Assembly: GCF_013167455.1 (NCBI RefSeq)
Contig: NZ_CP038328.1
DNA: 64,000 bases
Source of the DNA: Escherichia coli O157:H7
GTDB taxonomy: Bacteria > Pseudomonadota > Gammaproteobacteria > Enterobacterales > Enterobacteriaceae
Direction: 5' to 3' (one strand)
In this document: positions 5,222 through 44,113 of the stretch, in pieces
Layout: each line of letters begins with the position of its first letter
Position numbering within the stretch: position 1 is the stretch's first letter
Program-made: the position numbers and the translations under genes
The notes under the pieces: generated by a model
Database searches by the model: none
What the model saw: the letters and a program-made list of their open reading frames with translations, nothing else
Told to the model about the DNA's origin: nothing

Positions 5222-6661
5222 TCATGCGTTACTGGTAAAAAGTTTCCCGTCCCGCACCAGTTCACGCGGGTAGCTGTTTTTCAGTCGCGAACCAATCCGT
5301 TTGGCTAAACCAATCGGCTGATGCTGGAAAGTAACCAACACGTCATCCGCCACTGGCGCGGCTTGCGGGTAAACATCGCGCCCGCGATACCACTCCTCCG
5401 CTTCTTGCGGTGTCAGTTCAAAAGCGTTCTCGTTGTCGGGGGAGGCAAGGGCAATAACCGCTTCATGCTGCCAGCGATAACCTTTGTTGTGCGTTTCGGC
5501 AAGTTTAATCCCCAGGCGAGAAAATCGGACTTTACCGATCAGGGCTTCAATGCCTACCGGAAACAACCACACTTCTTTGTCGCGCTGCCAGAGTCGCAGG
5601 TTTCCATCCCAGTTTAAGCCAACACTTGCAGCCGCCTGACGAATTTGTGCGGCTTCGCGATCTTTCACCGGGCTGAACGGGAAATTGCCCACTTTGTATT
5701 TTGGGGTGGGTAAGGCGGGAATGGCCTGAGTTTTACGCAGACGAGCAACGAAGAAGCCTTCGCAGTCGTAAATTTGTGGGAAAACATGCAAAAAGCCTTC
5801 TTCGGTCAGCGCTTTGTTTGCACCAGGGAAGAGATCGCCAAGTGGTAAAAACTCTACTGCGTCGGGGTAAGTCTCTTTAAGCCACAGGCAAACGGATTCG
5901 TTTTCTTCCCGGTTTAAGGTACAGGTCGAGTAAACCAGTGTACCGCCAGAGCGTAATGCATGAAAGGCACTGTCGATCAGTTCCCGTTGGGTAGCTGCGA
6001 TTTCCTGATTGCTTTCTGGTGACCAATTTTTTAGCGCATCGGGATCTTTACGCACCACGCCTTCGCCGGAGCAGGGAGCGTCCAGCAAAATGGCATCGAA
6101 CATTTCTGGCAATGCCGCACCAAACACGCGGCCATCAAAATGTGTGAGCGCAACATTACTGATACCACAGCGGCTGATATTGGCATGTAACACTTTTACC
6201 CGACTGGCGGAAAACTCATTGGCAAGGATTGCCCCTTCGTTATTCATCCGCGCGGCAATTTGCGTCGTTTTGGAGCCTGGCGCAGCAGCGACATCCATCA
6301 CCCGCTGTGGTGCATTACCGTCAGCAAACAAGGCGGCGACGGGCAACATTGAACTGGCTTCCTGAATATAAAACAGGCCACTTAAATGCTCGGCGGTACT
6401 ACCCAATGGCAATGCATCTTCATCGTCGCGTTCAATCCAGAAACCTTCTTCACACCACGGAATTGGCGTAAGCGTCCAGCCATAAGGAGCGGTTAATCGC
6501 AGGAAATCAGCAACGGAGGTTTTCAGCGTATTAACGCGAATGCTGCGGCGCAACGGGCGCTGACAGGCGGCAAGAAAATCATCAAAAGAGAGCGTCGAAG
6601 GCATTGCTTCGCGCATTTGCGTCAGAAAGGCGTCCGGGAAATAAACGGTGTGTTGGGCCAC
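5222..6661 (-). CDS. rsmF: 16S rRNA m5C1407 methyltransferase (NOL1/NOP2/Sun family)
   Basis: SAM-methyltransferase motifs [10 protein letters not shown] and DAPCSGEG; start set at GTG 6661 for the recalled 479 aa (ATG at 6667 is an alternative); track ORF is over-extended upstream. Confidence 0.85.
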
Positions 6662-41096: not shown

Positions 41097-42221
41097 TTAG
41101 TCCTTAAATACCTGCGCCAGCAGATTATGGAAATGGGCGATACCATGTTCGGAAATGCCGCTACCGCTACTGTCGGCCATGATGCGCCCCTGACCACGAT
41201 AGCCACGCGATTTCAGCCCTTTCTGTACGCTTTCAACCAGACGTAAATCTTCCGGACGGAACACATCGCGATACCACTCAATCAGCGATTTTTGCTCGTC
41301 GGTTAACTCTTCATTGGTGAAGTAAATATCGTAGTTTTGCAGGGTAGTTTCAGAATCCACCGGGAATTCATAAATGACCGTCATCATCCCTTTGATCGGG
41401 GTGACATTCAGCATCGTGCACGGCCACAGCCAGAAACCGTGGAATGCCGCATCCGTACCCTCTTCAAATTTAAACGACTGTTCGGACGGTTTGGCGAAAC
41501 CGTATTGCAGCGTCCAGTTACCGTGCATGGTGTGCCAGTAACGATCAACCTGTACGGAGTCGGAGAAACCTGGATGCGCCGGACCACAGTGATAGCACTC
41601 GAGATAGTTATCGACAATGTTCTTCCAGTTGGCAGGCGTGCGGGTGGTAAAGCGGGCCGCCAGTTTCAGATCGTGGACTTCCGGGCAGGCTTCCAGCACT
41701 TTCGCGCCCAGACCGGGTAACTGATCTTCTACGCTGGTGGCGTTGGGGTCCATGTTGATGAAGACGAATCCGGCATATTCTTCCAGACGCACCGGAACCA
41801 GTTGCGCTTTGTCGCTATCGAAATTGGCGACGTTTTCGCAGTTACGTGCATGGGCCAGATTGCCATCGAGTTTGAATGCCCATGCGTGATATGGGCAGGT
41901 AATCACATTTTTTGCTTTTCCTTCACCGCTCAACAACTGATGACCACGGTGCGGACACACGTTATAGAACGCGCGCAAAACCTTATCACGACCGCGTACC
42001 AGCACGATGCTTTCGCCAATGATCTCACGCGTCACATAATCATTGGCATTCGCCAGTTCGCTGCTGTGAGCGACGCAAATCCAGCTTTTGGCGAAGACGT
42101 TCTCTTTTTCGTGTTCAAAGGCGTTCTGATCGGTATAAAAACGGGCAGGAATGGTCCACGCCTCTTGCGGGTTAGCGCAAAAATTTTCGGGTAGTACAAA
42201 GTCAGGGCTCAGATTGCTCAT
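41097..42221 (-). CDS. yeaW: Carnitine monooxygenase oxygenase subunit (Rieske non-heme iron)
   Basis: Track ORF trimmed to ATG 42221 (MSNLSPDFVLPENF..., 374 aa); Rieske motif CPHRGH...CPYHAW. Confidence 0.9.
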   Translation of the reverse strand: MSNLSPDFVLPENFCANPQEAWTIPARFYTDQNAFEHEKENVFAKSWICVAHSSELANANDYVTREIIGESIVLVRGRDKVLRAFYNVCPHRGHQLLSGEGKAKNVITCPYHAWAFKLDGNLAHARNCENVANFDSDKAQLVPVRLEEYAGFVFINMDPNATSVEDQLPGLGAKVLEACPEVHDLKLAARFTTRTPANWKNIVDNYLECYHCGPAHPGFSDSVQVDRYWHTMHGNWTLQYGFAKPSEQSFKFEEGTDAAFHGFWLWPCTMLNVTPIKGMMTVIYEFPVDSETTLQNYDIYFTNEELTDEQKSLIEWYRDVFRPEDLRLVESVQKGLKSRGYRGQGRIMADSSGSGISEHGIAHFHNLLAQVFKD

Positions 42222-42252: not shown

Positions 42253-43863
42253 TCAGTTGTCGCCTTTGAATACGGTTCCCGCAGGGAGCACTGGTGTTTT
42301 TTCCAGGGCTTCAACCGGTGTCTGCGGGAGATAATGTTCAACTTGATGAGCCGGAATGTCGGCGTAATCCTGTTTCAGCCAGCGAATAAATCCGCCGACT
42401 TTCACCAGTAAAATGACGAGGAAGGGAAGGGCTGTGAGCACGACGGTGGTTTTCATCGTTTCCAGCGAAGCACCGGTAAACAAGATGGAAAGCGGGATCA
42501 GAGTGATCACCACGCACCAGAAAAGACGCAGCCCACGGTCAGGATCGTCACCTTCCTGGAGATTACGCGTACTGGTCGCCGCCATGGTGTAGGCCACTGC
42601 ATCCATATGCGAGGCAAGGAAAATAATCATCACGCCCAGGTATGCGGCGAGGAACAATTTACCGGCTGGCAACGACATCAGAACTTGCTGTACAGCTGTT
42701 TCGCCGCCCAGAGTTTCCAGCACCTGTGGGACGTTGATTACGCCATTGATAAACTGATGAATGGCATAGCTTTCCATTACGCCGAAGAAGAACCAGCAAC
42801 CGACGGTGCTGCCGAGGATCAGTCCCCAGATAACTTCTTTAATCTTACGACCGCGGGAAACGCGGGTGACAAACATTGCTACGCCAGGGGTGTATGAGAT
42901 CCACCACAGCCAGTAGAAAACGGTCCAGTTGCGGGTAAATGAACCATCGCCAAGCGGATCGGTGAATAAGCTCATTTGCAGGAAGTTTTGCGTGGTCAGG
43001 CCGATGGCATTGATGATGCTGTTGGTAATAAATTCGGTTGGACCGACAATCAGCACCAGTAATGGCAGCAGGAACGCGCCCCAGCCAACCATTTTGCTCA
43101 GACGTTGCAAACCGTTGTTGATACCAATCCATGAGCTTAGGCAAAAAATGCCGCCGGAAAGCAGGATCACAAATGCCTGCACGGTGAAGTTATCGGGTAA
43201 ACCGGTCAGTGCGGAAAGTCCACGAGTAAAGGTTGCTGCGGTGACAACAAGGGAAATAGTCAGTGCGCCGACAGTGGCGATCAGGAACATCAAATCAACC
43301 AGTTTTCCCCATGGGCCTTGCGGGCGAACGCCGGTAATCGCGGCAATAATGCCGGAAAGACTCAGACCTTTGTTTTTCCGCACATGAAAGTGATAAGCCA
43401 TGATTAATGAGGCCAGCGTATAAGTTGCCCAGGCGCTGATGCCCCAGTGGAAGAAGGAGTAAGGGACGCTAAATTCGAGTGCCTGTTGTGAACGCGGTGC
43501 GATATTTAATCCAGGCGTTTGATAATAATAGGCCCATTCAGCAACCCCCCAATAAAGCGTAGAAGAACCTAAACCGGCACAAATAAACATAAACAGCCAG
43601 GAGAGCGTGCTGTATTCCGGTTTTCCTTCGCCAAGACGAATATTGCCGTATTTACTGGTGGCTAAATAAATCACTAGTCCCATTGCCAGCAAAACCAATA
43701 CCTGTACTGCGGAACCTAACGTACGCGTAACAAAAGTGTATATTGCGTTGGCCGCGTCGGCCGATTGTTGTGGGAAAAGGCTTAATGCAGCTGCGATGAA
43801 AAGAATGGCCACCAGGCTGATGCTTATCAGCGGCACATCTTTTTTCTTAACATTGCTCATCAT
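42253..43863 (-). CDS. yeaV: BCCT-family transporter YeaV; full 536-codon ORF reported, an internal TTG at 43698 would give 481 aa
   Basis: ATG 43863 is preceded by AGGAGA with 7-nt spacing, and the extra N-terminal segment encodes a hydrophobic helix ([19 protein letters not shown]). Confidence 0.8.
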
Positions 43864-44059
43864 GAGTCATCTCCTGGGCATAAAAGCCCGTCTCTGGCTT
43901 TTGCCAGTTGTAATTATTTGCAGGGTAATGAGTTGTATGTCGTGTTTAACGAATTGATTATTTGCATGTTACATAAATTAAACAATTAAGAATACGGAAA
44001 GCCATAAAACACGAAACGGAAACAATAAAAGGTGAAATGACGCAGGTTATTAACTGCAA

Positions 44060-44094
44060 AGAACGAATAACAAAACCGCGTCAGTGACGCGGTT
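44060..44094 (-). terminator. Intrinsic terminator after dmlA
   Basis: Minus strand: AACCGCGTCA-C-TGACGCGGTT perfect inverted repeat followed by TTTTGTTATT. Confidence 0.55.
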
Positions 44095-44113
44095 CAAATA
44101 AACTGGTTTGACC

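Follow-up and report, generated by a model that had tools for sequence, protein, structure and literature searches.

The window analysed here, a stretch of 64,000 nucleotides from Escherichia coli O157:H7, contains the genes leuE, dmlR, dmlA, yeaV, yeaW, yeaX and rnd in this local order, and the region matches chromosomes of O157:H7 with 100% identity. The yeaV gene lies on the minus strand at positions 42253-43863 and comprises 536 codons plus a stop; the list of open reading frames, Pfam, NCBIfam and RefSeq all identify it as encoding a BCCT-family transporter. Downstream of it by 31 nt is yeaW (41097-42221, minus strand), which encodes the oxygenase subunit of the carnitine monooxygenase, and upstream a terminator-like hairpin after dmlA (44073-44095, minus strand) parts dmlA from the yeaV leader. 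A promoter scan of the spacer between dmlA and yeaV found no sigma-70-like site. The order dmlA-yeaV-yeaW-yeaX is the same in K-12, and dmlR-dmlA followed by a BCCT-Rieske oxygenase pair is kept in Klebsiella, [Enterobacter] lignolyticus, Citrobacter/Salmonella and Serratia. In those four genera an aldehyde dehydrogenase gene (PF00171, at about 5290-6610 in the loci) comes after the Rieske oxygenase gene; in E. coli the gene next to yeaW is that of the reductase, yeaX, and an aldehyde dehydrogenase gene seems to be absent at the locus.

The first start codon of yeaV past an in-frame TGA is the ATG at 43861-43863 (minus strand), which is conserved in orthologues. Since the TGA (43867-43869, minus strand) bounds the reading frame two codons before this ATG, a form of yeaV longer than 536 codons is impossible. 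A Shine-Dalgarno sequence (SD), AGGAGA, is found at 43870-43875 (minus strand), and the spacer between it and the ATG is TGACTC (43864-43869). The initial annotation had placed the ATG 7 nt after AGGAGA, and this agrees with the sequence in that the ATG begins at the seventh nucleotide, the spacer itself being 6 nt long. Codon 2 is a second in-frame ATG (43858-43860, minus strand), and the subsequent in-frame starts are GTG at codons 10 and 18, TTG at codons 56 (43698) and 58, and ATG at codon 61. The SD is also overlapped at its 3' end by an ATG in another frame, which opens a frame of seven codons (AGGAG-ATG-ACT-CAT-GAT-GAG-CAA-TGT-TAA; 43847-43870, minus strand), so that the start region holds three ATGs inside 11 nt; the significance of this is probably nil.

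The SD is kept in four other genera (as CAGGAGA, GGGAGA or CAGGAG), and in Klebsiella, E. lignolyticus, Citrobacter/Salmonella and Serratia the codon-1 ATG occupies the same position, always equally far from the SD. The second ATG could be the physiological start instead, or both could be used: its 9-nt spacing from AGGAGA is usable, and E. lignolyticus likewise has ATG-ATG. In Klebsiella and Citrobacter, however, codon 2 reads TTG, and in Serratia it reads CAG, whereas every one of these has an ATG at codon 1; 43863 is therefore favoured over 43860 as the conserved start. PGAP and the NF007412 model also take codon 1, and we regard initiation at the second ATG as unlikely. The two starts differ by one residue, which is of no functional consequence.

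RefSeq/PGAP gives identical boundaries for the gene in O157:H7 PV15-279, where the product is WP_000987525.1, "BCCT family transporter YeaV". This protein, which belongs to the equivalog NF007412, is the YeaV of our window and does not differ from it; it is also annotated in the unrelated commensal/animal strains 58-3 and 2e, and the exact 536-aa sequence occurs on at least 1000 contigs of a public collection. The 536-aa model is already known as the standard RefSeq annotation, so it represents no correction.

Several profiles extend the homology of YeaV to its N-terminus. YeaV scores 406 bits against the Pfam BCCT profile PF02028 (gathering score 27; the BCCT family is TC 2.A.15), residues 14-499 corresponding to profile positions 3-485 of 485. 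The score against NCBIfam NF007412 (the YeaV equivalog, PRK09950) is 1033 bits over residues 1-536 of 536, with a curated cutoff of 647. The NCBIfam models of CaiT and BetT align residues 15-16 of YeaV to their own positions 17-18, and sequence matches in the PDB begin at YeaV residue 16 (DddT), 26 (CaiT), 12 (TmaT) and 9 (BetT). The N-terminal segment is also present in all full-length YeaV orthologues listed, of about 530-570 aa, including the 18 that were aligned. These orthologues come from Klebsiella, E. lignolyticus, Citrobacter/Salmonella, Leclercia, Shimwellia, Serratia, Yersinia, Xenorhabdus, Crenobacter, Pseudomonas, Aeromonas, Cupriavidus, Achromobacter and Helicobacter aurati. In the orthologue alignment, conservation is 90% or more at D9, L12, P31, A38, F42, T46, G50, Q54 and V57.

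The transporters of the BCCT family have 12 transmembrane helices (TMs), of which TM3-7 and TM8-12 form inverted repeats and TM1-2 lie outside them (PMC11323884, PMC11708041). The BetT trimer is assembled through helix H2/h7 and the TM2 of an adjacent protomer (PMC11323884). We assigned TM1 of YeaV to codons 12-30 (43774-43830, minus strand) from Kyte-Doolittle (KD) hydropathy, the AlphaFold helix and the alignment to the N-terminal TM of CaiT. It is followed by a long helix, codons 31-69 (43657-43773, minus strand), which by AlphaFold and KD includes TM2, with a hydrophobic core at residues 49-67. No 19-mer of the protein is more hydrophobic than residues 12-30 (KD mean 2.72); residues 49-67 come next (2.27). 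The AlphaFold (AF2) model, with a mean pLDDT of 77 and a pTM of 0.77, has helices at residues 10-29 (pLDDT about 80) and 31-69, and together with the core these conform to the 12-TM architecture, the repeats being assigned by homology. A Foldseek comparison of this model with CaiT, TmaT, BetP and BetT gave query-normalised TM-scores of 0.81-0.84 over 484-520 columns. The tryptophan-rich signature that the BCCT family has in TM8 is present at residues 312-321, aligning to CaiT W323/W324; its residues W313, T314, Y317, W318, L319, W320 and W321 do not vary among 20 sequences.

Residues 1-55 are not an extension: in the standard BCCT architecture they correspond to TM1 plus the first half of TM2. 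That the N-terminus forms a hydrophobic helix of the kind expected for TM1, as proposed initially, is borne out by the KD maximum at residues 12-30 and the AF2 helix at 10-29. The accompanying expectation that homologues carry an equivalent segment is also supported, since the PDB matches, the CaiT alignment and the structural superposition all include TM1; the N-terminal comparison with CaiT and BetT likewise recovered an equivalent TM1 and not homologues devoid of it. One detail had to be amended: the TTG at 43698, thought to be inside the TM1 helix, is placed by AlphaFold and KD in the middle of the next helix (31-69, TM2).

The nucleotide sequence of codons 2-55 behaves as coding sequence. 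Relative to four other genera, the differences in this region are chiefly at third positions and pN/pS is 0.15-0.42; in the comparison with E. lignolyticus, for example, there are 6, 6 and 29 differences at codon positions 1, 2 and 3, respectively. By these measures codons 2-55 are under purifying selection. In codons 56-500 pN/pS is 0.08-0.18, that is, the values for codons 2-55 are 1.5-3 times higher, and the N-terminus is therefore less constrained, though clearly coding.

These data bear on the possibility that translation in O157:H7 starts at the TTG at 43698, giving a protein of 481 aa, and that the 55 upstream codons are not translated. In favour of this, the 481-aa sequence stands in UniProt/UniRef as YEAV_ECOLI, and the TIGR00842 "bcct" model aligns only to YeaV residues 55-499 (model positions 6-452 of 452), which makes the short form seem complete. 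TIGR00842 omits TM1 and most of TM2, and a 481-aa protein consequently looks full-length to it; this coverage may be the reason why the K-12 form escaped domain-coverage flags. Against it, the homology to the family, the conservation among orthologues and the codon-position bias extend as far as codon 1, and a conserved SD-ATG and purifying selection are observed upstream of the TTG. The TTG is itself devoid of a usable SD (cAGGta is just 2 nt upstream) and falls in mid-helix: the first 14 residues of a product started there would be hydrophobic but not enough to cross a membrane, and no N-terminal 19-mer has a KD of at least 1.6. The K-12 form, moreover, is accounted for by a deletion, as described below. 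We consider a TTG start in O157:H7 extremely improbable. The preference for a gene of 536 codons over the 481-aa form, put forward at the outset, is upheld by family homology, orthologues, selection and conservation of both SD and ATG, and on this sequence evidence the 536-codon yeaV is clearly the better, and very probably the correct, model for O157:H7.

In E. coli K-12 the gene is different. The yeaV gene of MG1655, b1801 (NC_000913.3, NP_416315.1, YEAV_ECOLI), spans 1446 nt, encodes 481 aa and begins at a TTG, which confirms the length of 481 aa that had been given for K-12. This annotated start is homologous to the TTG of codon 56 in our window (43696-43698, minus strand), in the middle of TM2. 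Alignments revealed that a segment of 225 bp, corresponding to 43736-43960 (minus strand; the boundary is ambiguous by 1 nt, a T), is missing from MG1655, MC4100 and BL21(DE3), and the alignment gap is identical in MG1655, the K-12-like TUM22760 and BL21(DE3). The segment contains 97 nt of the leader, the SD, the ATG, codons 1-42 and 2 nt more. The premise implied by treating the two lengths as alternative starts of one sequence, namely that the upstream ATG exists in K-12, hence does not hold: the deletion has removed it. In K-12 the reading frame is closed upstream of the TTG by a TAA 16 codons away, and as the stretch between the two holds no start codon, the TTG is the first in-frame start left. 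The 481-aa length of K-12 YeaV is therefore due to the 225-bp deletion and not to a mis-called start. PGAP treats the deleted allele as a pseudogene ("incomplete; missing N-terminus") in TUM22760 and BL21(DE3), while the curated MG1655 record keeps a 481-aa coding sequence and UniRef has YEAV_ECOLI. A full-text search of the literature found no mention of the K-12 yeaV deletion.

The polarity of this change can be deduced from its distribution. Of the 1636 bases that MG1655 shares with the intact strain 58-3, only 1 is different, which makes the K-12 allele the 58-3 haplotype minus 225 bp, and because the segment is present in other genera the deletion is the derived state. The reverse reading, in which the K-12 form came first and O157-type strains gained the 225 bp by insertion, draws on the presence/absence polymorphism and nothing further. 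It is refuted by the outgroups: TM1 is kept in Klebsiella, Citrobacter, Serratia, Yersinia, Pseudomonas, Cupriavidus, Helicobacter and the solved BCCT structures, and other genera have the leader, SD and ATG in collinear order. We regard an insertion as practically out of the question. The deletion junction has a microhomology of only 1 nt, for which reason we rejected a repeat-mediated recurrent deletion; together with the identical boundaries in K-12 and B, this argues for one event that spread by descent or recombination.

The O157:H7 window carries the intact, ancestral yeaV, very probably translated from the ATG at 43863 behind AGGAGA, and a single 225-bp deletion has stripped the K-12/B allele of the proximal leader with the SD and start codon, of TM1, and of the beginning of the TM2 helix. 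We consider it very probable that yeaV of O157:H7 encodes an intact BCCT transporter of 536 residues and 12 helices starting at this ATG, and that the 481 aa of K-12 are the residue of the 225-bp deletion.

Among 5,426 complete E. coli genomes, yeaV was found in 4,374 and gave no match in 1,052. Two thirds of the carriers (2,930 of 4,374) have the 225-bp segment and about 1,440, a third, do not; this sample is inflated by laboratory K-12/B derivatives, MC4100 among them. Other lesions were seen as well: CFSAN061770 (NZ_CP023142.1) has an internal stop at codon 105, and in strain 19SZHZ869Rt an IS1 element is annotated inside the matched yeaV region. In other strains, then, yeaV has been inactivated independently, and it looks dispensable and often lost in E. 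coli. In BL21(DE3) (NC_012971.2; 3967-5675 of the locus), an IS4-like element, IS421, interrupts yeaR, which lies some genes upstream of the locus; this disruption is unrelated to the state of yeaV.

The leader contains two small hairpins immediately 5' of the SD on the minus strand, CTGGCaaaaGCCAG (43894-43907) and GGGCttttatGCCC (43876-43889), and both (43876-43907) lie within the segment deleted in K-12. In E. lignolyticus the GGGC/GCCC of the hairpin at 43876-43889 is replaced by GGAT/GTCC. A search of Rfam with the yeaV leader returned no match at E values up to 1. A regulatory RNA in the leader was considered and rejected, as the hairpins are partly conserved, with two compensatory pairs in five sequences, and the covariation term is zero.

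We then come to whether the truncated gene still yields a functional protein. Residues 57-536 of YeaV are 100% identical between K-12 and O157, the TTG being read as Met in place of Leu56. The retained codons carry 20 synonymous and no non-synonymous differences, a pattern that reflects selection on the intact gene. Between MG1655 and BL21 there are 7 differences in yeaV, all synonymous and each also present in intact alleles; they therefore predate the deletion and are silent on selection after it, being old polymorphisms reshuffled by recombination.

A transporter made from the remnant would lack TM1 altogether and keep just the final 14 residues of the TM2 helix. A metabolomics screen with the Keio knockout and ASKA overexpression of K-12 "yeaV" reported uptake shifts, including carnitine depletion, and the substrate shifts observed for this gene were broad and non-specific (PMC10971958). 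That screen, which speaks for some residual function, unknowingly used the truncated allele. Another relevant strain is E. coli MKH13, presumably a derivative of MC4100. It accumulates no carnitine unless a heterologous transporter is supplied (PMC6562126). Non-induction explains this result equally well as a dead remnant. The loss of leader and SD, the mid-helix start and the MKH13 report are circumstantial evidence against function. It is conceivable but rather doubtful that the 5'-deleted yeaV is still expressed as a functional transporter, be it from the TTG or by means of vector signals in ASKA clones; a dead or crippled remnant is the likelier state, and we hold it to be reasonably probable.

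Concerning the substrate, the gene context dmlR-dmlA-yeaV-yeaW-yeaX suggests L-carnitine or a relative, and YeaV would import this compound, a quaternary-amine substrate of the YeaW/YeaX carnitine monooxygenase. YeaV is not CaiT by the profile scores: it obtains 346 bits from the CaiT equivalog NF002887 (cutoff 541), as well as 227 from the BetT model NF007399 (cutoff 695) and 312 from the glycine betaine model NF047988 (cutoff 650). It shares with CaiT (PDB 2WSX, 3HFX, 2WSW, 4M8J) the BCCT fold, with a TM-score of 0.83 over about 485 columns, and N-terminal helices TM1 and TM2 equivalent to YeaV residues 12-30 and 45-69. The last of these PDB entries is the CaiT R262E mutant. The aromatic box, whose residues bind the trimethylammonium group in CaiT, is also shared, E111, Y114, W142, W147, W323, W324 and Y327 of CaiT being E109, Y112, W140, W145, W320, W321 and Y324 of YeaV. 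On the other hand, identity between the two proteins is about 27%, and yeaV adjoins an oxygenase gene and is not in a cai operon. YeaV also ends in a C-terminal tail of about 40 residues, without an extended C-terminal regulatory domain, and CaiT has no such tail. The two proteins differ further at CaiT R262 and M331, which in CaiT take the place of the coupling ions and which are V259 and V328 in YeaV. These two valines and the missed CaiT cutoff favour ion-coupled uptake, and YeaV probably works, as far as its sequence indicates, by ion-coupled symport and not by exchange of the CaiT type.

Two other transporters can be compared with YeaV. DddT (PDB 21fh/21ff/21fk/21fi) is the best sequence match among solved structures (E = 3e-100, over YeaV residues 16-498 including TM1-2), but it is a different named transporter and not an orthologue by context. 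Aci01347 of Acinetobacter baumannii is a BCCT protein of 551 aa for which 12 TMs are predicted; its gene belongs to a carnitine-degradation cluster that also encodes a CntA/B-type oxygenase and a malate dehydrogenase. The protein takes up carnitine in an energy-dependent manner, and H+ symport has been proposed for it (PMC6562126). We suggest an analogous role for YeaV; Aci01347 is absent among the best 120 relatives of YeaV.

The gene model itself changes nothing, since RefSeq already has the 536 aa. What is added is that the discrepancy with K-12 is explained as a real deletion, with a consequence for experiments in K-12 and B strains; a length mismatch with K-12 can be a real allelic difference and not an annotation error. 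MG1655 and BL21(DE3) are devoid of the ATG at 43863, so their initiation-site data cannot decide the start. The TRAINSPOTTER N-terminomics supplements have no yeaV/b1801 entry, and data of the K-12/BL21 type cannot contain this ATG. In the literature, the O157 locus tags of yeaV were found only in a 2007 microarray table.

Keio and ASKA experiments on "yeaV" use a truncated allele, without the leader, ribosome-binding site, ATG, TM1 and part of TM2. Work on YeaV, or on the conversion of carnitine to trimethylamine by YeaW/YeaX (gut TMA/TMAO), is affected when done in K-12, MC4100-derived or BL21 strains, and an intact allele, from O157:H7 or commensals such as 58-3, is advisable instead. If the remnant is dead, the Keio/ASKA "yeaV" results do not describe the native protein, and K-12, MC4100 and BL21 would be without the importer of the carnitine-to-trimethylamine pathway. 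If it does work, TM1-2, which lie outside the LeuT-type 5+5 core, would be dispensable for folding and transport.
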